A stretch of DNA of 64,000 bases from Candidatus Methylomirabilis sp. GTDB lineage: Bacteria; Methylomirabilota; Methylomirabilia; Methylomirabilales; 2-02-FULL-66-22. This document shows, piece after piece, positions 1 through 54,838 of this stretch. Numbering within the stretch: the stretch's first letter is position 1; every line of letters starts with the position of its first letter. Location: NCBI GenBank assembly GCA_035455275.1, contig DATIFO010000045.1:2421-66420 (forward strand). The letters are read 5' to 3'. The notes beneath the pieces are model-generated. The model was not told the origin of the DNA, searched no databases, and saw only the letters and a program-made list of their open reading frames with translations. The position numbers and the translations under genes were made by a program.

Positions 1-1015
1 CGCCGTCCCGGAATCCGAGGTTGGCCGCCACCGGGACCTGGAGCGAGAGGCTGAGGATGTCGGTCTTGCCCGCGTGAAGGTAGTGCAGCTCGCTCCGGAC
101 CCGCAGCAGGAAATCCAGCGCCTGGAGGCACTGGGCCAGCTCCACGGGGGTGAGCAGGCCCAGGCCCGGCAGGGCCTTGAGATCCTCCAGGCGATGGCGG
201 GCGCGCGCCGCCCAGAGGCCGGTGTGAAAATCCCGCAGCCCTCCCGGCCCCTCCTTGACGTTGGGTTCCTGCACGTACACGGACCCACCGTACTTGGCAT
301 GACGGCGCTCCTGCTCGTTGATCTTGTGCTGGACGTACTGCTGGGCCCGCCGCCCCTGAAACGCCCGCCACATCCGCTCCTGGAGGTCGGCGAACACCGT
401 GAAGCTTCCCGCCAGGAAGCGGGCCTCCAGGAGGGCCGTCCGCACCGTGAGGTCCGCCTCCAGCATCTGCACGGTGTCGCTGAGCGAGCGGCAACTGTGT
501 CCCACCTCGAAGCCCAGATCCCACAGGAAGTAGAGGACGTGGTCCAGCAAGGTGGTGACGTAGCCGTCCACGCGCCTGGGGTACAAGAACATCACGTCCA
601 CGTCCGAGGCGGGGTTCAGCTCGCGCCGGCCGTAACCCCCCAGGGCCACCAGCGCGCAGCCCTCCGTCCGCTCGCGGGCCGCGCGGCCTGCCCCCTCGTC
701 GGCCAGGCGGAAGAGCTGGCACACCACCGCGTCCACCAGGTCGGCGTGGCGGGCCACCACCTCCAGGCCGCTGGCTCCCTGGCGATGGGACGCCTCGATG
801 GTGGCGCGCTCCTTCAGGATGAAGCCCTTCACCGCCGGGAGCAGCGCCGCGCGCAGGGCTTCCCCGTCACCTGCGGGGACGCCGGGGAGATGGTCTTCCA
901 GGAGCGTCCGGAATCGCCGGGACAGCTCCGTCTCGGGACCGTAGGTTGTCCCCACGGCCGGCGCAGGTGCGGACCAGCGGAAGAGTCTCGTCAGGGAGCG
1001 AACAGCATCCGCCAT
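1..1015 (-). CDS. glnD: [protein-PII] uridylyltransferase GlnD, N-terminal part (C-terminus lies beyond the left edge)
   Basis: Minus-strand translation from ATG at 1013-1015 is absent from the ORF track because its stop is off-window. It reads MADAVRSL...LVALGGYGRRELNPASDVDVMFLY...QEPNVKEGPGGLRDFHT, the nucleotidyltransferase core and following motif of GlnD. The listed + ORF 74..1537 is its antisense shadow. Confidence 0.8.
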   Translation of the reverse strand, partial: MADAVRSLTRLFRWSAPAPAVGTTYGPETELSRRFRTLLEDHLPGVPAGDGEALRAALLPAVKGFILKERATIEASHRQGASGLEVVARHADLVDAVVCQLFRLADEGAGRAARERTEGCALVALGGYGRRELNPASDVDVMFLYPRRVDGYVTTLLDHVLYFLWDLGFEVGHSCRSLSDTVQMLEADLTVRTALLEARFLAGSFTVFADLQERMWRAFQGRRAQQYVQHKINEQERRHAKYGGSVYVQEPNVKEGPGGLRDFHTGLWAARARHRLEDLKALPGLGLLTPVELAQCLQALDFLLRVRSELHYLHAGKTDILSLSLQVPVAANLGFRDG

Positions 1016-1178
1016 GTCGCCTCCAGAGGCCCCTCGCCTCTCTCACGCACTATAGCGGTCGGCCCTGCGCTGGTCAAGGCGGGCGACCGGGAGAAGGAGG
1101 GGAGGAGGGATTGGCGCCGAAGACCGGGCGGAGGGGAGCGCGTCAGGACTCCGGGACCGGGGCCGGAGGGTTGCAGGC

Positions 1179-1662: not shown

Positions 1663-2415
1663 TCAGAGCCTCCCGCAGACGCCGCACCTCGGGTCCTTCC
1701 GCACCTTCACCTCGAAGAACCGCATCTCCAGGAAGTCACAGCACAAGAGCCTCCCCTTCAGCAGGCTGCCCACCCCTGCCAGGTACTTGATGGCCTCCAT
1801 GGCCTGGATGGTGCCCGTGATTCCCGGGGTGGCCCCAAGGACGGGGAAGACCTCTCGGGGGGGCGATTCCTTGAAGAGGCACGCCAGGCAGGCGGTCTCG
1901 GGAGAATGGATGAAGGTCACACGCCCCTCGAATCCCCAGATGCTCCCGTGAACCAGAGGGATTCCCTTCCGGACGGCCGCGGCGTTCAAGAGAAACCGGG
2001 TGGGATAGTTGTCCATGCAGTCGAGGATGAGGTCCGAGTCGGAGACCAGGCGATCCACGCTCCCCTCGTCGATCTTCTCCGTGAGGGGCTCGATCTGGAC
2101 GTGGGGGTTGAGTCTGGCCAGGGTCCGCTTGGCCGACTCGGCCTTGTTCGTCCCGATGCGCGAGTCGTCGTGCAGGAACTGCCGGTTGAGGTTGGAAAGC
2201 TCGGGCGAATCGAAGTCGCAGATGCGGAGGAGACCGATCCCCGCGACGGCGAGGTTGAACGACACCGGGCTTCCGAGGCCGCCGGCCCCCGCGATGAATA
2301 CCTTGGAGGCCTTGAGCCTTCGCTGGCTCTCTTCCCCCCAGTTGGGAATGATCATCTGTCGGGCGTAGCGCTGCTTCTCCTCCGACGTAAGCTCGGTCCC
2401 GCCTGCCTGCAGCAT
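1663..2415 (-). CDS. ThiF/MoeB/HesA-family E1-like adenylyltransferase
   Basis: 250 aa. Contains the GAGGLGS nucleotide loop, an NLNRQ motif and two C-terminal CxxC pairs (CLAC, CGVC). Confidence 0.85.
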
Positions 2416-2665: not shown

Positions 2666-4159
2666 TCAGTGGGTGGCCGCCTTGGACGAGGTCGGCGAGG
2701 CCGCTCCGTGTCCCAGAACCGACCGGTATTCCGCGGTCCCGAAGCCCGTTCCCTGTCCGGCCGTGCCGATCAGCCCGAGCGAGTACGCGTTCTCGTTGTG
2801 CTGGCTGAGATCCAGGCCCATGACCTCGTCCTCTTCGTCGACGCGGAGTCCGATCAGCACGTCCACGATCTTGAGGAGGATCAGCGAGCCGATGAAGGCA
2901 AAGATCCACGTGGCCAGGACGCCGACGACCTGCACCCAGAGCTGCCCCGGATTGCCGAAGAAGAGCCCGTTGTTGCCGGCGTCGTTGATGGCCTTGCTGG
3001 CGAACAGGCCGGTGGCCAGGGCCCCCCAGGTCCCGCCGACCCCGTGCACGCCCACCACGTCGAGGGAATCGTCGTAGCCAAGGCGGGTCTTGAGGTTACA
3101 TGCGCTGTAGCAGAGATAGCCAGCCACCGCGCCGATGATGATGGCCGAGAGGGGCCCCACGAATCCGGAGGCGGGCGTGATCGCCACGAGCCCCGCCACC
3201 GCGCCCGAGGCCGCCCCCAGGACGGTGGGCCTGCCCCGGCTCAGCCACTCGACGAGCATCCAGGAGACCGCCGCCGCCGCCGTCGCCACGTGGGTGACCA
3301 CGAAGGCGCTGGTGGCCAGGGCACCCGAGCTCAGGGCGCTGCCGGCGTTGAAGCCGAACCATCCCACCCACAGCATGGCCGCCCCCGTGACCGTCAAGGG
3401 GAGGTTGTGCGGCGGCATGGGCTCGGAGCCGAAGCCGCGTCGCTTCCCGATGAGGAGGGCGGCTGCCAGCGCCGAGATGCCTGAGCTCACGTGGACCACG
3501 GTCCCGCCCGCAAAATCCAGGGCGCCGAGGTTTCGCAGCCACCCGCCCGTCCCCCACACCCAGTGGGCCAGGGGATCGTAGATGAAGGTGGTCCAGAGCA
3601 GCGTGAAGACCAGGAAGGCGCTGAACTTCATGCGCTCCGCGAAGGCCCCGGTGATGAGCGCAGGTGTGATGATGGCGAACATGAGCTGGTAGATCATGAA
3701 CGCCTGATGGGGGATGGTCGCAGCGTAGTCGGGGTTCGGGGTCAGGTCGACGCCGTTGAGGCCGATCCAGGACAGGTTGCCGACCAGACCGTGGACGTCC
3801 GGCCCGAAGGAAAGGCTGTAGCCCCAGAGCACCCACTGGAGGCTGACCACGGCCATGATGATGAAGCTGTGCATGATGGTGCCCAGCGCGTTCTGGCGCC
3901 GGACCATGCCCCCATAGAACAGGGCGAGCCCGGGGGCCGTCATCATGAGGACCAGGGCCGAGGAGACAAGCATCCAGGCGGTGTCGCCGCTGTCGATCTT
4001 GGGTGGAGGCGCAGCCTGCGTCGTCGCCGCGGGTGCCGTGGCGGGCGGTGCCGCCGGCGCGGGAGCGGGCTGCTGCGCCGCCAGGGGAACGGCCAGCAAG
4101 CAGAGGGCTGTGAGGAGCCCGAAGGTCACGAGCAGCCGAAGCAAACGATACCCTCCCAT
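2666..4159 (-). CDS. amtB: ammonium transporter (Amt family)
   Basis: 497 aa with a signal peptide, a Pro/Ala-rich linker and multiple TM segments. Amt motifs DFAGGTVVH and VGVHGVGGTWG are present. Confidence 0.9.
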   Translation of the reverse strand: MGGYRLLRLLVTFGLLTALCLLAVPLAAQQPAPAPAAPPATAPAATTQAAPPPKIDSGDTAWMLVSSALVLMMTAPGLALFYGGMVRRQNALGTIMHSFIIMAVVSLQWVLWGYSLSFGPDVHGLVGNLSWIGLNGVDLTPNPDYAATIPHQAFMIYQLMFAIITPALITGAFAERMKFSAFLVFTLLWTTFIYDPLAHWVWGTGGWLRNLGALDFAGGTVVHVSSGISALAAALLIGKRRGFGSEPMPPHNLPLTVTGAAMLWVGWFGFNAGSALSSGALATSAFVVTHVATAAAAVSWMLVEWLSRGRPTVLGAASGAVAGLVAITPASGFVGPLSAIIIGAVAGYLCYSACNLKTRLGYDDSLDVVGVHGVGGTWGALATGLFASKAINDAGNNGLFFGNPGQLWVQVVGVLATWIFAFIGSLILLKIVDVLIGLRVDEEDEVMGLDLSQHNENAYSLGLIGTAGQGTGFGTAEYRSVLGHGAASPTSSKAATH

Positions 4160-42324: not shown

Positions 42325-43725
42325 TCAGCGGGCGGTGTCGCGTCCCGTGGTCCTGGCGAGCTCGGGCATCTCGGTGGAGAAGAGGCGGAGCTTCCGGTAG
42401 AGGGTGCGCTCGGAGAGGCCGAGCGTCCTGGCAGCCGCCGAGCGGTTCCCCCGGCAGTGGGAGAGCGTGCGCAGGATGGCCTCCCGCTCCAGGTCCGCCA
42501 AGGTCATGCCTATCGGCAGGCGGAGGCCCTCCTTGGGGGAGATGGCGCGAATGGAGGGAGGCAGTTCGGCCGCCGTGATGATCGGCCCCTTGGCCAGCAC
42601 CACGGCCCGCTCGATGCAGTTCTCCAGCTCCCGCACGTTGCCCGGCCACCGGTAATCCATGAGGAGGGCCATGGCCTCTTCGCTGAGGCGCTCGACGGGT
42701 TTGCGCAGCTTCTTGACAAATCGATCCAGGAAGTGGGTGACCAGGAGGGGGATGTCCTCCGCCCGGTCCGCCAGGTCCGGCAGCGACAGGGTGATCACGT
42801 TCAGGCGGTAGTACAGGTCCTCCCGGAATGTCCCCTCCGCCACGGCCTGCATGAGGTCCCGGTTGGTCGCCGCGATGAACCGGACGTTCACCTTTGCCGT
42901 CTGGGTCGATCCCACCGGCTTGACCTCGCCCTCCTGGATCGTCCGCAGGAGCTTCACCTGCATGGGCGGAGGCATGTTCGAGATCTCGTCCAGGAACAGG
43001 GTCCCTCCGTCCGCCTCCTGGAACACCCCAGTCTTGTGGCTCAGGGCACCGGTGAAGGCCCCCTTGACGTGGCCGAACAGCTCACTCTCCAGCAGGGTCT
43101 CGGTGAGCCCCCCGCAGTTCAGGGCGACGAAGCGGCGCTCGCGCCGCGGGCTCTGGGAATGAATGGCCCGCGCCACCAGCTCCTTGCCGGTCCCGCTCTT
43201 CCCGTGCACCAGCACGTTGCTCTCGGTGCTCGTCAGGCTCTCCAGGAGCTGGAAGACCTCCTGCATGCGCGGGCTCTTCCCGATGAGATCCTGGTAGGTG
43301 TAGCGCCGGTCCAGCTCCCGTCGCAAGGCCTCGTTTTCCTGGCGCAGGCGGATCTCCTCCACGGCCTTGCGGGTCAGGTGCAAGAGCCGCTCGGAGGTGA
43401 GGGGCTTGGTGATGTAGCCGAAGGCGCCTCGCTTGATGGCCTCCACGGCGGAGTCGATCGTCCCGTAGGCGGTGACGAAGATGACCCCGGGGGGATTCGG
43501 CAGGGTCCGGATGCTCTCCAGCAGGGCCAGGCCATCCATGCCGGGCAGGACGTAGTCCGTGAACACGAGGTCGACGGGCTCCCGCTTCAGACAGATCAGG
43601 GCGGCATCCCCGCTTTCGGCCGGGATCACGGTGAAGCCGTCGGCCTCCAGGATCTCCTTGAAGAGGAGCCGGGATTCGACATCCTGGTCTACAACCAAGA
43701 GGCGGGCGTGTCTTCCCATGCACAA
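42325..43725 (-). CDS. sigma-54-dependent response regulator (NtrC family)
   Basis: Receiver domain (LLVVDQD...FTDYVLPGMDG), AAA+ Walker A GKSGTGKE, GAFTGA loop and a C-terminal Fis-type HTH. Confidence 0.9.
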   Translation of the reverse strand: MCMGRHARLLVVDQDVESRLLFKEILEADGFTVIPAESGDAALICLKREPVDLVFTDYVLPGMDGLALLESIRTLPNPPGVIFVTAYGTIDSAVEAIKRGAFGYITKPLTSERLLHLTRKAVEEIRLRQENEALRRELDRRYTYQDLIGKSPRMQEVFQLLESLTSTESNVLVHGKSGTGKELVARAIHSQSPRRERRFVALNCGGLTETLLESELFGHVKGAFTGALSHKTGVFQEADGGTLFLDEISNMPPPMQVKLLRTIQEGEVKPVGSTQTAKVNVRFIAATNRDLMQAVAEGTFREDLYYRLNVITLSLPDLADRAEDIPLLVTHFLDRFVKKLRKPVERLSEEAMALLMDYRWPGNVRELENCIERAVVLAKGPIITAAELPPSIRAISPKEGLRLPIGMTLADLEREAILRTLSHCRGNRSAAARTLGLSERTLYRKLRLFSTEMPELARTTGRDTAR

Positions 43726-43730
43726 ACCTC

Positions 43731-44093
43731 TCAGGTCGCGTGCTGCCGGAGGATCTCCGCAAGCTCCGCGGTGAAGGCCGAGCGGGCGACGACCCGGTCG
43801 CAGCCGGCCTCCGTGGCGGCCGCCCGGAGCTCTCGCTGCACGTGGGAGAAGAACCCCAGGGTCGGAATGGCCCGCAAGTCCGGGTCTGCCTTCAGCTGGC
43901 GAATCGCGGCCAGGGGCTCACAGCCCGTGGCGTTCAGGTCGAAGATCACCAGGGCCGGGTGGCTGGCCCGGGCCAGCCCCATCAATTCCCCCGGCGACCG
44001 GACCAGGCTGAGCGGCAGACACAGGCGCTGCGCCGTCTCCTGGATCTTCGCCCCGAAGAACAGGTCGTCCACGGCGGCGATCACGCCGGCCAT
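43731..44093 (-). CDS. single-domain receiver-like protein (atypical)
   Basis: 120 aa with AAVDDLFF and VIFDLN acidic-pocket positions. The conserved Lys context is not obvious. Confidence 0.6.
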   Translation of the reverse strand: MAGVIAAVDDLFFGAKIQETAQRLCLPLSLVRSPGELMGLARASHPALVIFDLNATGCEPLAAIRQLKADPDLRAIPTLGFFSHVQRELRAAATEAGCDRVVARSAFTAELAEILRQHAT

Positions 44094-44126
44094 GAGCCCT
44101 CCCTGCGATTCGAAGACCTCCCGCCC

Positions 44127-45341
44127 TCAGCTCAGAATCCTGGACACCTTGGGCGCCCGGAGCCTCTGGGCGGACTGCAGCCCGGATCCGAGCAAGGGCC
44201 GGACGTAGTAGCGGAAGGCGTCGGTCACGTTGTTCCCCGCCTCGTTGATGAAGTGGTCCGGCATGTGTCGAGTCTTGCCCGCGACCTCCGGCAGGGGGGT
44301 GAGCCGGTAGTCCACGGAGTACTCGCCCGTCCGCTGGATGGTGATGGAGCCGTCCAGGTTGTGCCAGATGGCGAACTGGGCCGCCTTCTCGCCGACCTCC
44401 CGGGCCTCGTGCTGATCCACATCCGAGACGCACCCGAAGAAGGATCGCTGCAGGTACCCGAAGGTATCGGCCCGGACCCGCTTGATGCTGAGGTTTCCCT
44501 TGACGTACTCGGCGAGCAGATCCCCCAGCGCCCCCGTCCCCGAGAGCTGGATGTTTCCGTGGGCGTCCCGCTCTTTCGTCTCCAGGGACTTCGTCAGGAT
44601 GGGCGTCCCCTTCTCATCCTGGATCCCCTCCGACACGGCGACGACGCAGCGCCCGTGCGAGTCGTAGGCCGCCTTCACGTCCCCCAGGAACCGCTCGAGG
44701 CTGAAGGGGCGTTCCGGGAGGTAGATCAGGTGCGGTCCGTCGTCGGGGTACTTCCGCGCGATGGAGGCCGCGGCCGTGAGGAAGCCCGCGTGCCGTCCCA
44801 TCACCACGGCGATGTACACCCCGGGCAGGGCGCGGTTGTCCAGGTTCGCGCCGATGAAGGCCTGCGCCACGAACCGCGCCGCAGAGCCGTAGCCGGGCGT
44901 GTGGTCGTTCACCACGAGATCGTTGTCGATGGTCTTGGGGATGTGAATGGCGCGGAACTCGTAGCCGGCCTGCTCGGCCTGCTGGTTCACGATATGGACC
45001 GTGTCCGCGGAGTCGTTCCCCCCGATGTAGAAGAAGTACCGCACGTCATGCGCCTTCAGCACCCGGAAGATCTCGTGGCAGTACTTCTCATCCGGCTTGT
45101 CCCTGGTGGAGAGCAGCGCCGAGGAGGGGGTGATGGCGACCTGCTCGAGATTGTGCGTCGTCTCCTGGGTGAGGTCGAGGAAATCCTCGTGGATGATCCC
45201 TCGCACCCCCTGCACGGCCCCGTACACGCTGGTGACCTGGGGGAACTTCCGCGACTCCAGGACCACCCCGACGAGCGACTGGTTGATGACGGCGGTCGGG
45301 CCGCCGCCTTGGGCCACCACGACCTTTCCCACGAGTGCCAT
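44127..45341 (-). CDS. pfp: pyrophosphate-dependent phosphofructokinase-type enzyme
   Basis: Internal ATG after GAGGAGGAAGG. IGGNDS (Asp at the position that is Gly in ATP-PFKs) and PKTIDNDL (Lys) follow the PPi-PFK signature. Confidence 0.8.
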   Translation of the reverse strand: MALVGKVVVAQGGGPTAVINQSLVGVVLESRKFPQVTSVYGAVQGVRGIIHEDFLDLTQETTHNLEQVAITPSSALLSTRDKPDEKYCHEIFRVLKAHDVRYFFYIGGNDSADTVHIVNQQAEQAGYEFRAIHIPKTIDNDLVVNDHTPGYGSAARFVAQAFIGANLDNRALPGVYIAVVMGRHAGFLTAAASIARKYPDDGPHLIYLPERPFSLERFLGDVKAAYDSHGRCVVAVSEGIQDEKGTPILTKSLETKERDAHGNIQLSGTGALGDLLAEYVKGNLSIKRVRADTFGYLQRSFFGCVSDVDQHEAREVGEKAAQFAIWHNLDGSITIQRTGEYSVDYRLTPLPEVAGKTRHMPDHFINEAGNNVTDAFRYYVRPLLGSGLQSAQRLRAPKVSRILS

Positions 45342-45689
45342 GCCTTCCTCCTCGCGTGCGCTCTGCGACCGACGCTGAATGAACGGGAACGACGCGAACC
45401 TCCCGGGAACCCAGGGAGCGCTGCCGCCGGGACGCCGGGCCTCCGGTGGCGAGCGCACCGCCCCGCCGGGCCATGGACTCACGGATTCACGAACCCACGT
45501 CCCGACGCGCTCCTTTGTATCACACCGCCCGAAGGTCCGTAAAGACCAAAGCCGGGAATGTGCGGGTGGCGTGCGTTATGCGCCGGAAGGCTGCCGCAAT
45601 CCGCCCGGGGGCCCGGCGGAGCCTCCCGGACGGAATTCCGGCGGCGCGGGCCTGAGGATGCCGGGGTGGAAGGAGGTGACGGGCGGGGG

Positions 45690-46499: not shown

Positions 46500-46805
46500 G
46501 CTGGCGCTCACCCCTCCACCATCCGTATGCCTGAGGCCGGGCCGGCCGGATTCCCCAAGCCTGCTCGTCTCCCGGCCAGTCGCTGCCCGCGGGAGGGATT
46601 CTAGCAGCCTCGTCGCCATGGCGCCAGACGGAGTGTCGCACGGGGTGCAGGCTACACTTTTCAAGCTTAGCAGGATATCCTCAAGCGCCGGTTGCTCCCG
46701 CTTGGCTCGGCGGCACTGGAGAGGATCCCGGACAAGACGTGGCGTGGTGGCGAAAGGGCGTTTTCGGCCGGATTGACCTGTCCGCTCACAGAGGAGGATC
46801 ATCCC

Positions 46806-47828
46806 ATGAGACCAGCCAGCCGCGTGCTACCCCTTGCCCTGCTCAGCCTCACGTTGCTTGTGGCGCCTGCAGGCGCCTGGATCCGAAGTCCTGCGACGAC
46901 CTTCGCGACCTTGCCGGCCGGGAGCATCAACCCGGAGGGCATCACCGTCGACGCGAAGGGGAACGTGTACGTGACCACGTTTGCGCCGAGCCAGACCCCT
47001 CCGGGCCATCTGGTCGTCTTCGATCACAGCGGGCACCTGCTGCGACAGGTCGAGGTGGATGGTTCGAGCAACCTGCTCCTCGGCCTGGCCTTTCATCCCA
47101 AGACCGGTGCCCTGCTGGTCCTCGACCTCGGCGGGGCGCAGGTCCTCAAGGTCAATCCGGTCACGGGCGCCTCGACGATCTTCGCGACGATCCCGGGGGG
47201 CGCCGCGGCCGGGCCAAACGCCCTCACCTTTGACGGCGCAGGAAACGTGTACGTCTCCGACTCCTTCCAGGGGATCATCTGGCGCATCGGCCCGAATGGC
47301 GGGACCCCCGTCGCCTGGGTGACCAGCCCGCTGCTCACCACAGCCGGGTTTCCGCCCTTCGGCGCCAACGGCCTGGGGTTCAACAAGGCCAGGACCGCCC
47401 TCTTCGTGACCAACACCGGCAACGACACGGTGGTGAAGATCCCCGTGAGCAACGGCACGGCCGGAGATCCGGTGGTCTTCGTGAACAGCATCAACGGGGC
47501 GGATGGGCTGATCCTCGACCATGAGGACAACCTCTGGGTGGCGGCCAACCAGGCGGACGAGATCGTTGTGGTGAATCCCTCGGGTCGGGTCATCGCCAAG
47601 CTGGGGGACTTCGACGGGATCGACCCGCATGGATCGCCCAACGGACTCCTGTTCCCCGCCAGCCTGGTCTTCAGCGGGGAATTCCTCTACGTGACCAACC
47701 TGTCTCTGGACCTGCGCCTCTTCGGCCTGCCCCAGGCCGTGGATTCCCAGTGGGCGGCGCAGGTGACCAGGCACACCGTGGCCAAGATCCGGGCCAGGAT
47801 CCCCCCGGTTCCCGGTCTGCGGCGGTAA
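46806..47828 (+). CDS. secreted SMP-30/gluconolactonase/NHL-type beta-propeller protein
   Basis: SD GAGGAGG, a signal peptide and repeated GNVYV.D / NGL.F blades. Confidence 0.75.
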   Translation: MRPASRVLPLALLSLTLLVAPAGAWIRSPATTFATLPAGSINPEGITVDAKGNVYVTTFAPSQTPPGHLVVFDHSGHLLRQVEVDGSSNLLLGLAFHPKTGALLVLDLGGAQVLKVNPVTGASTIFATIPGGAAAGPNALTFDGAGNVYVSDSFQGIIWRIGPNGGTPVAWVTSPLLTTAGFPPFGANGLGFNKARTALFVTNTGNDTVVKIPVSNGTAGDPVVFVNSINGADGLILDHEDNLWVAANQADEIVVVNPSGRVIAKLGDFDGIDPHGSPNGLLFPASLVFSGEFLYVTNLSLDLRLFGLPQAVDSQWAAQVTRHTVAKIRARIPPVPGLRR

Positions 47829-47883
47829 ATCCACGAAGTCGATCGAGGCACACGGATCGCCTCACGAAAGTCTGCGGGTAGCC

Positions 47884-47918
47884 CACGAGCGCCGAGTCCC
47901 CCGGCGCTCGTGTTGTTT
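47884..47918 (+). terminator. rho-independent terminator
   Basis: CACGAGCGCCG agtcccc CGGCGCTCGTG TTGTTT: a perfect 11-bp stem with a U-rich tail. Confidence 0.7.
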
Positions 47919-48114
47919 GCGCGGCTGGCGCTGACGCCCCCATCGAAGAGGGTGGCGTGCAGGGGCAAATCCCCGGGCGGAGCAAAACCCGGCGTTGCGG
48001 TTCGCTCGGCCGCCATGATTCCGGGCAGGGAGACACGATCCGACTCAGCCTGATGTGCAGCTTTTCCGGAGATTTGTGCGGATGGTGGCCCTGGAGTCGG
48101 TGCTCGGAGTCGCA

Positions 48115-48130
48115 TGGCATCGCCTTTGCT
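48115..48130 (+). promoter_or_regulatory. near-consensus sigma-54 promoter
   Basis: TGGCAT-CGCCT-TTGCT against consensus TGGCAC-N5-TTGCW. GG and GC are at exact spacing. It lies about 75 nt upstream of the 48204 ATG. Confidence 0.55.
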
Positions 48131-48203
48131 TTCAAGTCGTGGTGAGCGGTTGTGTGAAGGCGCAAAGCTGAATGAACCTCAATGGGGCAAGGAGGGGTGG
48201 GCG

Positions 48204-48401
48204 ATGGAACAGGTCGTATGTCATTTCCTGGATTCCGACACAGACGGGAAACCCGCTGTATACGAGGAGGACTACCTCCGCTACCCGATCCGCGAAGGCG
48301 TGGTCTGCCACGCCAAGGTCTACAACTCCGTGCGCCCGTGCCGTTGTCCGGAGCGGGAATCCTTCGAGAAGCGGTTTGTCGCGTCCATAGGGTCCCGATA
48401 G
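48204..48401 (+). CDS. small Cys/His-rich hypothetical protein (65 aa)
   Basis: SD GGAGGGG. Sequence is MEQVVCHFLDSDTDGKPAVYEEDYLRYPIREGVVCHAKVYNSVRPCRCPERESFEKRFVASIGSR. GC3 is about 75% by hand count. Confidence 0.5.
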   Translation: MEQVVCHFLDSDTDGKPAVYEEDYLRYPIREGVVCHAKVYNSVRPCRCPERESFEKRFVASIGSR

Positions 48402-48519
48402 CCTCCCTTCGGACTCCCCGGGTGGATCCGCTCGAACTCCTCGCAGTCCCAAGCCAGGCGAGGAGCGCCCACCGCCATGGAACGTCGCCTGGTTCGCCCA
48501 GTCAAGCCCCACGTTGGCG

Positions 48520-48549
48520 TTGACACCCTTTCGCGCCGGGCAGTATACT
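48520..48549 (+). promoter_or_regulatory. near-consensus sigma-70 promoter for glpX
   Basis: TTGACA-18 nt-TATACT, about 60 nt upstream of the GTG start. Confidence 0.45.
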
Positions 48550-48610
48550 GCGACGCGCTGTTTTCTGCCCGACCCGACAAGACCTTTCGACGGACTGGCG
48601 GAGGGAAGCC

Positions 48611-49567
48611 GTGGAACGAAATCTGGCGCTGGAGGTGGTCCGCGTGACCGAGGCCGCGGCGCTATCCTCGGCCCGGTGGATGGGACTGGGCAACCTGAAG
48701 GCGGCGAACCAGGCGGCCGTGGACGCCATGCGCCGGTCCTTCGAGGCCGTGCGCTTCTGCGGGACCGTGGTGATCGGCGAGGGGGAGCGCGACGAGGCGC
48801 CCATGCTGTTCGTCGGCGAGCGGATCGGCAGCGGTGAGGGGGGGGAGCTGGAGGTGGCGGTGGATCCGCTGGAGGGGACCGGCATCGTCGCCGAGGGTCG
48901 CGCCAATGCCGTCTCGGTGGTGGCGATCGCCGAGAAAGGGGGGTTCCTCCGCGCGCCTGACACGTCCATGGAGAAGATCGCCGTGGGCCCCAGGGCGAAG
49001 GGGGCCGTGGATCTCACCCTGAGTCCGGCGCAGAACCTGCAAGCCATCGCCGATGCCATGAAGTGTTACGTCGAGGATCTCACAGTGGTGATCCTGAACC
49101 GCCCGCGCCACGCCGACCTGATCCGTTCGGTCCGCGAGGTGGGGGCCCGGATCAAGTTGATCCAGGACGGCGACGTCTCCGCCGCGATCGCCACTGCCTT
49201 TCCGGAGTCCGGGGTGGACGTCCTCATGGGGATCGGCGGCGCCCCCGAGGGGGTCCTGGCGGCGGCCGCGCTCCAGTGTCTGGGTGGCGACATGCAGGGA
49301 CAGCTCCGGCCGCGCAACGACCACGAGGTGGAACAGGCTCGCCGGATGGGCCTCAAGGACATGGAGCGAATCTACGGGATCGGCGACCTGGCATTCGGCG
49401 AGGATATCATGTTCGCGGCCACGGGGGTCACCGACGGCGACCTGCTTCGCGGGGTGCGCTTCTTCGGCGGCGGGGCCCGGACGCATTCGGTGGTCATGCG
49501 TCGCCGCTCGGGGACGGTGCGGTTCATCGAGGCAACCCACCGATTCGACCGCAGGCCCGTTTACTGA
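48611..49567 (+). CDS. glpX: class II fructose-1,6-bisphosphatase
   Basis: LALEVVRVTEAAALSSARWMG...VAVDPLEGT...GGAPEGV are typical GlpX motifs. Confidence 0.92.
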   Translation: MERNLALEVVRVTEAAALSSARWMGLGNLKAANQAAVDAMRRSFEAVRFCGTVVIGEGERDEAPMLFVGERIGSGEGGELEVAVDPLEGTGIVAEGRANAVSVVAIAEKGGFLRAPDTSMEKIAVGPRAKGAVDLTLSPAQNLQAIADAMKCYVEDLTVVILNRPRHADLIRSVREVGARIKLIQDGDVSAAIATAFPESGVDVLMGIGGAPEGVLAAAALQCLGGDMQGQLRPRNDHEVEQARRMGLKDMERIYGIGDLAFGEDIMFAATGVTDGDLLRGVRFFGGGARTHSVVMRRRSGTVRFIEATHRFDRRPVY

Positions 49568-52751: not shown

Positions 52752-53639
52752 TCAGGCACGGGGGTGGTACTTGTCGTAGATGGCCTTCAGGTGGGCCCGG
52801 CTCAGGTGGGTGTAGATCTGGGTCGTGCCGATGTCGGCGTGGCCCAGCATCAGTTGCACCGAGCGGAGGTCCGCCCCCCGCTCCACGAGATGCGTGGCGA
52901 ACGAGTGGCGCAGGGTGTGGGGCGTCACCCGCTTCGTGATCCCGGCGGCGGCGGCCTGCCGCTGCATGAGGTGCCAGAACATCTGGCGCGTGAGGGCTCG
53001 CCCGCGCCGGCCGGGGAAGAGATAAGGGCTGGCGCCGCGCCTGTCCAGTTGGGGCCGTCCGCGCGTCAGGTACGCGCGCAGGCTCTCCGCCGCCACCTCG
53101 CCCAACGGCACCAGTCTTTCCTTGTTGCCCTTCCCCAGCACGCGGACGATTCCCACGGTCAGGTCCAGATCCGCCAAGCGCAGGCCGACCAGTTCCGACA
53201 CGCGTAACCCGGAGGCGTACATCAACTCCAGCATGGCTTGATCCCGCAGGGAGCGGGGGGTCGTCGGCTCGCGTGCGGTGAGGAGGCGGTCCACCTCCTC
53301 GCTGCTCAGGACGCCGGGGAGCCGCCGCCACGGCCGGGGGGACTCCAGGTGGGCCGTCGGGTCCTCCTGCGCCCGGCCCTGGCGGACCAGGAACCGGTGG
53401 TACTGCCGGATGGCCGAGAGGTGGCGGGCCACGGAGCGCGGGCCAAGACCGGCCTCGCGGAGGGCCAGGAGATACCGCGGGACCTCGGCCCGCTCCAGGC
53501 TGGTGACAGCCTTTCGTCGGGCGGTCAGGTAGGCGGTGTATCGCACCAGGTCGCGCCGGTAGGCCTCCAGGCTATTCTGGGCAAGGCCCCGCTCCACCAC
53601 CAGGTGCTCGAGGAACGCGTCGAGAAGGGGGTCCGTCAC
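52752..53639 (-). CDS. xerD: tyrosine recombinase XerD
   Basis: GTG start overlaps the upstream stop (GTGA). Motifs ARG...HTLRHSFATHL...LGHADIGTTQIYTH, with the C-terminus ...YHPRA as in XerD. Confidence 0.85.
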   Translation of the reverse strand: MTDPLLDAFLEHLVVERGLAQNSLEAYRRDLVRYTAYLTARRKAVTSLERAEVPRYLLALREAGLGPRSVARHLSAIRQYHRFLVRQGRAQEDPTAHLESPRPWRRLPGVLSSEEVDRLLTAREPTTPRSLRDQAMLELMYASGLRVSELVGLRLADLDLTVGIVRVLGKGNKERLVPLGEVAAESLRAYLTRGRPQLDRRGASPYLFPGRRGRALTRQMFWHLMQRQAAAAGITKRVTPHTLRHSFATHLVERGADLRSVQLMLGHADIGTTQIYTHLSRAHLKAIYDKYHPRA

Positions 53640-54838
53640 ACTTTGGCATCCTTGGGGCGAAAGGCTTGGCCTCGGAGCGGGAGGGTCCCGCGCACCCGGA
53701 TCAACTCCTGGTAGAGTTCCAGCATCCTGGCCGCCAGCGCGTCCGGCGCATAGCCCGCCGCAACATGCCGCCCGCCCCGCCCCATGGCCTGCCGCCGCTC
53801 GGGCTGCCCCCACAGCGTGACGACCTGGTCCGCGAACGCCGCCGGGTCCTCGGGTACCATCGTGCCGCCTTCCCCGTTCCGCAGGAGTTCCGCCGCCGCG
53901 TCCGAGGTGACGGCCACCACGGGGAGGCCAGCGGCCAACGCCTCCAGGATCACGAGACCCTGCGTCTCGGACGTGGAGGGAAAAAGGAAAAGGTCTGCCG
54001 CTTGATAGTAGGTGCCCACGACCCCGTGTGGGACGGCGCCGGTGAAGTGCATCTTTGGCTCGAGGCCCAGGTCACGGGCCATCCGTTCCAGCCGCAGGCG
54101 GTCGTCTCCCTCGCCCACGAGGACCAACCGGGCCGTCGGGAGCTGTGTCAGGATCCGGGCGAACGCCGACAGGAGAAATGCTTGGTTCTTCTCCCGGGCC
54201 AGCCTCCCCACCGAGAGGCAGAGAGGGTCCCCCCGACAGAGGCCGAGGGTCCGGCGCGAGGCCTGGCGATCCGCCTCGGCCATGATCGGCGGGACCGTGA
54301 CGCCGGTCGGGATCACCTCCAGCGGCGCGTGAAGGCCGCGGGCCCGGAGCTCCCGCGCCACGGCGGTCGTGGGGGCGATCACCAGATCGGACCGGTTGGC
54401 GAAGGCCAGGGCCCGGCCGACCGCAAGGCGGACCACCAGACGAGACGGACCGGGAACGTAGTGGGCGTAGCACTCATAGCGGGTGTGATAGGTGAAGACC
54501 AGGGGCCGCCCCAGGTGACGGGCCCAGCGCCCCGCCGCTGCCCCGAGCAGGAACGGGTGCTGGGCATGGAAGATGTCGAGGTCGAGCCTTGCGACCGCGC
54601 TGGCCACGCCCGGCCACCTCGAGAGAGGAAGGATGTAGGCGTGGTGAGTCGGCGCCCGGAACCCGGGGACCCGCAGGATGTCCGGCTCCCCGCCAGGCAG
54701 AGCTCCGTAGCGGGGCGCCACAACAGTCACCCGGTGGCCGGCGCGGCGGAAGGCCCTGGCAAACGTCTCCACCGAGGTGGCCAGCCCATTGGCCAGCGGC
54801 CGGTAGTTATTGGTGAAGAGGCCGATGTGCATCCTCAA
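53636..54838 (-). CDS. glycosyltransferase family 4
   Basis: 400 aa with a GT-B fold pattern and E-x7-E motif FPSTSETQGLVILEALAAGLPVV. Confidence 0.85.
   Translation of the reverse strand: MRMHIGLFTNNYRPLANGLATSVETFARAFRRAGHRVTVVAPRYGALPGGEPDILRVPGFRAPTHHAYILPLSRWPGVASAVARLDLDIFHAQHPFLLGAAAGRWARHLGRPLVFTYHTRYECYAHYVPGPSRLVVRLAVGRALAFANRSDLVIAPTTAVARELRARGLHAPLEVIPTGVTVPPIMAEADRQASRRTLGLCRGDPLCLSVGRLAREKNQAFLLSAFARILTQLPTARLVLVGEGDDRLRLERMARDLGLEPKMHFTGAVPHGVVGTYYQAADLFLFPSTSETQGLVILEALAAGLPVVAVTSDAAAELLRNGEGGTMVPEDPAAFADQVVTLWGQPERRQAMGRGGRHVAAGYAPDALAARMLELYQELIRVRGTLPLRGQAFRPKDAKV

Follow-up and report, generated by a model that had tools for sequence, protein, structure and literature searches.

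In the established mechanism of sigma-54-dependent transcription, DNA looping brings an activator bound upstream into contact with the promoter, which is then opened at the expense of ATP. The classical promoters of this kind, such as those served by NtrC at glnAp2 and PspF at pspA and those of the EBP regulons of Desulfovibrio vulgaris (PMC4641369), combine GG and GC elements at an exact spacing with a tandem activator-type repeat further upstream; they are intergenic, lie 60-90 nt before a co-oriented gene, and are found in genomes that encode an NtrC-family activator with a GAFTGA motif. The locus described here lies in the window, by which we mean the whole 64-kb stretch of DNA that was analysed, and it is like the classical systems in each of these respects. 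It is unlike them in what it appears to control, which is a gene for a small unnamed protein, where the classical promoters drive metabolic, flagellar or stress operons. The regulatory architecture can be called textbook; the product family is rare and unnamed.

Our reading, to which we assign a probability of roughly 80%, is that this locus works as a self-contained module in which a small conserved protein is expressed from an enhancer-dependent promoter. Such a locus would provide a comparatively validated sigma-54 module (repeats, -24/-12 element, Shine-Dalgarno sequence and gene) from a high-GC soil lineage that is uncultured, with a 12-bp motif by which its activator and the other members of the regulon could be sought. 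It also defines a rare family of small proteins that has a confident predicted fold without structural relatives and a possible zinc-ribbon partner. It overturns nothing known; its use should lie in annotation and in work on small proteins and on sigma-54 regulons.

The -24/-12 element and its leader

A preliminary description of this DNA had proposed a TGGCAT-N5-TTGCT promoter about 75 nt before an ORF with a Shine-Dalgarno sequence. This was confirmed: TGGCATCGCCTTTGCT matches 10 of the 11 specified consensus positions, and its GG and GC are exactly 10 nt apart, the spacing by which sigma-54 promoters are recognised (Table 1). The pattern TGGCAY-N5-TTGCW has one occurrence in the 64-kb window against an expectation of 0.06, and TGGCATCGCCTTTGCT is the sole site in the window within one mismatch of TGGCAC-N5-TTGCW. 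The start of the element is at -89 from the ATG (48204), which lies 73 nt past the last promoter base. Transcription is predicted to begin near 48141, and the leader deduced from this position folds no better than shuffled sequences (z = -0.46) and has no Rfam match; an Rfam scan of the entire window likewise matched nothing.

Table 1. Positions of features in the window (upper rows) and in related loci (lower rows, each with the name of the locus)
Feature	Position	Strand	Description
amtB, ammonium transporter gene	2666-4159	-	Shine-Dalgarno sequence AAGGAGGG after AGGCACGCAGCATGCT
Second -24/-12 site	4217-4202	-	AGGCACGCAGCATGCT; 42 nt before the amtB ATG (4159)
NtrC-family response-regulator bEBP gene	42325-43725	-	REC, Sigma54_activat, AAA_lid, HTH_8; GAFTGA loop
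SGL/gluconolactonase-like gene	46692-47828	+	
Gap	47829-48610		782 nt
Intrinsic terminator of the SGL/gluconolactonase-like gene	47884-47918	+	11-bp perfect hairpin (47884-47912), then TTGTTTG
Repeat region	47963-47990		GGGCAAATCCCC-N5-GAGCAAAACCC
Candidate bEBP site, repeat 1	47963-47974	+	GGGCAAATCCCC; 152 nt upstream of the T of TGGCA
Candidate bEBP site, repeat 2	47980-47990	+	GAGCAAAACCC, degenerate; 17 nt after repeat 1
Conserved block	48070-48079	+	AGATTTGTGC; about 40 nt upstream of the -24 element
Predicted sigma-54 -24/-12 promoter	48115-48130	+	TGGCATCGCCTTTGCT (TGGCAT-CGCCT-TTGCT); consensus match and cross-locus conservation
GG of -24; GC of -12	48116-48117; 48128-48129	+	
Predicted 5' leader	48141-48203	+	63 nt; deduced from promoter position
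Shine-Dalgarno sequence	48190-48197	+	AGGAGGGG, strong
65-aa protein gene	48204-48401	+	MEQVVCHFLDSDTDGKPAVYEEDYLRYPIREGVVCHAKVYNSVRPCRCPERESFEKRFVASIGSR; member of the unnamed ~63-aa family
GC-rich hairpin without U-tract	48437-48465	+	CTCCTCGC...GCGAGGAG; downstream of the ORF
Sigma-70-like promoter	48520-48549	+	TTGACA-N18-TATACT; belongs to glpX, not to the module
glpX	48611-49567	+	
L088, -24/-12 element	-65 from ATG		TGGCATGGCCCTTGCT
L089, -24/-12 element	-89 from ATG		TGGCATCACCCTTGCT
L093, -24/-12 element	-88 from ATG	-	TGGCATCACCCTTGCT
L094, -24/-12 element	-87 from ATG		CGGCACCGCCCTTGCA
L088, repeat region			GGGCAAATGCCC-N5-GGGCAAATCCC and further copies
L089 and L093, repeat region			GGGCAAATGCCC-N5-GGTCGA(A/G)TCCC
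L094, repeat region			GGGCAGATGCCC-N5-GGGCAGATCCC
L089, family paralogues	550-741; 1727-1536	+; -	
L093, family paralogues	1671-1480; 493-684	-; +	
L089, zinc-ribbon microprotein	1313-1206	-	
L092, zinc-ribbon microprotein	1901-2008		
L093, zinc-ribbon microprotein	907-1014		
L095, zinc-ribbon microprotein	907-1074		
L096, zinc-ribbon microprotein	490-597		
L098, zinc-ribbon microprotein	617-727		

Conservation of the promoter and of a candidate activator site

For comparison, the contigs of 12 family members were retrieved, together with one extra metagenome locus. The subclade nearest to the window protein (48-61% identity) comprises four lineages and five loci, namely the window, L089 with L093, L088, and L094. 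Every one of these loci has a -24/-12 element with 10 of 11 matches, at -65 to -89 from the ATG, so that the check proposed in the preliminary description, whether the element is kept upstream of homologues, came out in its favour for the closest of them and at a comparable distance. Its core reading of a putative enhancer-dependent small-protein gene is supported by this comparative evidence from four lineages. Outside the subclade, L086 has only a weaker site (8/11), and eight of the more distant members have no -24/-12 site at all. Control by sigma-54 thus does not extend across the family, and on the loci compared the promoter is a trait of one subclade and not of the whole family.

When the regions upstream of the five genes are aligned, invariant columns cluster in two places, at the -24/-12 element and at a tandem motif, GGGCA(A/G)AT(G/C)CCC, and the remainder is divergent. 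The motif is found 152-173 nt upstream of the element in all five loci, with counterparts of repeat 1 at -152 to -173 in L089, L093 (minus strand), L088 and L094. Repeat 2 aligns with GGGCAAATCCC in L088, GGGCAGATCCC in L094 and GGTCGAATCCC in L089, always at an offset of +17. Within the window GGGCARATSCCC has a single exact match, which is repeat 1. A search for inverted-repeat activator sites had been suggested for 47940-48100; the region does hold a conserved tandem repeat, which emerged from the cross-locus alignment, whereas an inverted-repeat scan of 47830-48210 returned, at the settings used, the terminator hairpin only. The position of the repeat and its tandem form fit a candidate bEBP enhancer. 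Nothing on the motif was found in the literature searched, and it is not known to resemble the sites of NtrC, NifA or DctD. EBP sites in Desulfovibrio vulgaris typically lie within 100 nt of the promoter, with some more than 300 nt away, and the repeat-to-promoter distance seen here is inside the reported range (PMC4641369). Between the repeats and the promoter, the TT..GC (48074-48079) of the AGATTTGTGC block is invariant in the five loci (alignment columns T175, T176, G179 and C180); this block could be a site for an architectural protein or for a second regulator.

In the module that we propose, a bEBP would bind the tandem GGGCA(A/G)AT(G/C)CCC sites at 47963-47990, and looping of the DNA would allow its AAA+ ring to meet the sigma-54 holoenzyme in the closed complex at 48115-48130. 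Hydrolysis of ATP would then open the promoter for a start near 48141, and the 65-aa product would be translated from the 63-nt leader by way of its strong Shine-Dalgarno sequence.

Assignment of the promoter to the small gene

The small gene lies in the gap between the SGL/gluconolactonase-like gene and glpX, where GC content is 0.575-0.665 as compared with about 0.68-0.72 in the flanks. The preliminary description had placed a terminator and a sigma-70 promoter of glpX at the two sides of this lower-GC gap of about 780 nt, and these features were found as described. The terminator hairpin folds well (z = -3.16), and its presence would insulate the module from read-through from the SGL/gluconolactonase-like gene.

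On the downstream side, the sigma-54 promoter might mainly serve conditional transcription of the housekeeping genes glpX, hisS and aspS, in which case the small ORF would be a leader or a passenger. All four are on the same strand, and from the ORF stop (48401) to glpX (48611) there is no canonical terminator, just the hairpin without a U-tract, which folds no better than shuffles and has nothing comparable kept in L088, L089 or L093; some transcripts may therefore continue into glpX-hisS-aspS. Several observations speak against this as the main role of the promoter. The strong sigma-70-like promoter is glpX's own, and it is the sole part of the gap that is kept (L006 2975-3004 versus window 48520-48549) in L006, the closest glpX relative (86% identity), where the upstream genes are different and the whole small-ORF module is absent. 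At other loci the sigma-54 promoter and the upstream site stay with the small gene, and the genes downstream differ or face the opposite way: those of L088 are minus-strand ORFs, and in L089 and L093 a convergent paralogue operon follows. The small ORF is also itself under protein-level constraint. We therefore consider it unlikely that the promoter exists mainly for glpX, hisS and aspS; across genomes it accompanies the small gene instead.

The flanking genes differ in every locus. In the window they are the SGL gene and glpX; elsewhere they include an ABC permease, a LuxR-type regulator, an OYE reductase with TRAP transporter genes, DNA polymerase III delta, and transposase or integrase genes. 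These differing flanks, together with the absence of the module from L006, indicate that the gene is an accessory, self-contained unit, and a possible link to pfp and glpX, raised in the preliminary description, finds no support since the neighbours vary by locus. After L006, the next-closest glpX relatives show 60-68% identity and are mostly labelled Deltaproteobacteria, Myxococcota or Bdellovibrionota.

It is very unlikely that the -24/-12 match is a non-functional product of chance and that the small gene uses another type of promoter. The family can apparently be expressed without sigma-54, as some distant members have neither a sigma-54 site nor an obvious sigma-70 site (no sigma-70-like promoter was found in three scanned loci of distant members that lack the sigma-54 site). 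Yet a 10/11 match recurs in four independent lineages against a background of 0.002 such sites per 300 nt in about 1 Mb of comparable high-GC loci, and shuffle frequencies of the element, locus by locus, are 0.0015-0.004. The upstream repeat is conserved along with the element, and no sigma-70-like site was found upstream of the 65-codon ORF in the window.

The letters TGGCAT...TTGCT could in principle be coding, as part of an N-terminal extension. Reading from an in-frame ATG at 48114 gives an ORF of 95 aa, the element is in frame with the ORF in L089 and L088 as well as in the window, giving an apparent MASPLL extension, and gene callers extended P0002 upstream. In L093 and L094, however, the reading frame of the element is not that of the ORF, with a stop codon immediately past it in L093 (-88) and with no start codon in L094 (-87), from which it follows that the constraint is on the DNA and not on a coding sequence or an N-terminal extension. 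Moreover, the stretch from the element to the ME... start is not kept as protein, a strong Shine-Dalgarno sequence precedes the ME... start in every locus, and most homologues are exactly 63 aa. We regard a coding role as highly improbable, and reject the extension on the frame in L093 and L094 and on the stop codon in L093.

The small protein and its family

The preliminary description had called the 65-aa product an orphan, and a word-index protein search with the single sequence did return only the identical protein, on five identical short contigs; an identical copy is present on MAG GCA_035456365.1. However, when 1.84 billion cluster representatives were searched exhaustively with HMMER, 15 homologues came to light (E 3e-19 to 9e-4), mostly of 63 aa. 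The family consensus is MExxVxHFWVxGxDGxxTLYExDYxxYPxRxGVxCxxKVxxSERPCxCPER, and H7, E21, Y24, G32, C46 and C48 are invariant in the alignment of 15 members. A metagenome scan with the family alignment yielded one true extra locus, L089, with L090 and L091 being spurious, and viral contigs held no family member. The ORF has GC of 0.62, 0.41 and 0.76 at codon positions 1, 2 and 3. The coding-like GC3 noticed earlier is thus borne out, at a value lower than the 0.83-0.93 of neighbouring genes. Nucleotide differences by codon position are 1/6/12 between L089A and L093A and 2/1/6 between L089B and L093B. Taken together, the homologues, their kept length, the invariant residues, the third-position bias and a confident AlphaFold model argue that the gene is real, and in relatives it is intact, being conserved as a gene of about 63 codons.

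In several Myxococcota genomes (L012, L027, L040, L055 and L059), a gene for a YbgC/4HBT-type thioesterase lies directly before glpX, about 400 nt upstream, and no gene of this type is present at the corresponding position in the window. That the small ORF is a deletion relic of such a gene is hardly credible: two short collinear tblastn matches of 16 and 20 aa (E 0.008 and 0.065, in an 850-nt database) to the thioesterases that precede glpX in those five genomes would favour it, but hhalign against hot-dog thioesterases gives a probability of 0.3% (E 0.2, 19 columns aligned) and the ORF belongs to a conserved family with its own invariant residues and unrelated genomic contexts, which together rule it out.

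The family has no match in Pfam, NCBIfam, PHROGs or PADLOC, a PDB sequence search with the protein gave E values of 0.8 or worse, and nothing relevant on related small proteins was found in the literature searched. AlphaFold, run on the shallow family alignment, gave a confident model (mean pLDDT 90.1) in which residues 2-11, 17-30 and 33-38 form strands, a loop carries the Cys-x-Cys, and residues 51-63 form a helix. We take the product to be cytoplasmic; its predicted fold is a beta-meander of three strands that ends in a C-terminal helix. Foldseek returned no significant match for it (best E 0.2 in PDB and 0.06 in BFVD, TM at most 0.52). The order of elements, strands and then a C-terminal helix, is that of the PUR/Whirly-like beta-beta-beta-beta-alpha repeats (Borrelia Pur-alpha, 3n8b/3nm7); this candidate was rejected on a Foldseek E of 0.3, TM of 0.32 and rmsd of about 8 A, which are not significant.

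The pattern of conservation makes a metal-binding or redox (Cys-x-Cys) centre the most likely role of H7, E21, C46 and C48, an assignment that we hold with low to moderate confidence. A metal site of four Cys and two His, as proposed earlier, is not conserved: only H7, C46 and C48 are invariant among the Cys and His residues. The duplicated VVCH motif on which attention had been drawn is particular to the window sequence: of the 15 members, 11 have C35, six have H36 and four have C6. The protein resembles small Cys-rich metal-binding proteins and zinc ribbons in its size and in its conserved Cys-x-Cys and His. It is unlike zinc ribbons in having two invariant Cys and one His, no CxxC...CxxC knuckle, and no match in sequence or fold.

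Paralogues and a zinc-ribbon partner

L089 and L093 each carry two convergent family paralogues, about 0.8-1 kb apart on one contig. One of them, type A, has the sigma-54 promoter and the upstream repeat, and the other, type B (P0003), has neither. In at least five loci the type B gene has behind it, on the same strand, a gene for a zinc-ribbon microprotein of about 36 aa, PTHxITCxxCxxTxxVPxxRRFLCDxCF, and in L095 the microprotein shares the reading frame of the family domain, so that one polypeptide of 187 aa (P0006) results. The window holds no copy of this partner; its best tblastn match there (48020-48136, E 0.066) is without the Cys pattern, and we take it for a chance match. A tentative and on balance doubtful proposal is that the ~63-aa family represents a new small fold, has a metal or redox centre made up of His, Glu and Cys-x-Cys, and acts jointly with the ~36-aa zinc ribbon, and that the sigma-54 copy would be a conditional paralogue under a dedicated bEBP recognising GGGCAAATGCCC repeats.

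Sigma-54 machinery and other genes of the window

The window contains further signs of sigma-54 regulation. The activator gene at 42325-43725, which had been noted 4.4 kb upstream of the small gene, does encode a real bEBP with GAFTGA, and nothing connects this bEBP to the small-gene site. A second -24/-12 site precedes amtB, and amtB is a classic nitrogen-regulated sigma-54 target. The GAFTGA bEBP and the amtB site together indicate that this genome uses the sigma-54 promoter class; rpoN itself is absent from the 64-kb window. The amtB promoter is like that of the small gene in having its -24/-12 element just upstream of a Shine-Dalgarno sequence and ATG. It is unlike it in that no GGGCAAATSCCC-like site is nearby, so that another activator presumably acts there, and a motif scan of the window found no site resembling the upstream repeat near amtB or near the bEBP operon.

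No histidine kinase gene was seen adjoining the bEBP gene. The latter is preceded, in a same-strand row (42325-45482, minus strand), by a phosphofructokinase-family gene (44127-45482) and by an ORF of 120 aa (43731-44093, minus strand) that has no Pfam match. On the other side of the small gene, about 4.4 kb downstream, there is a gene for a tyrosine recombinase (52752-53813, minus strand) with Phage_integrase and SAM-like N-terminal domains, which may be XerC/D.
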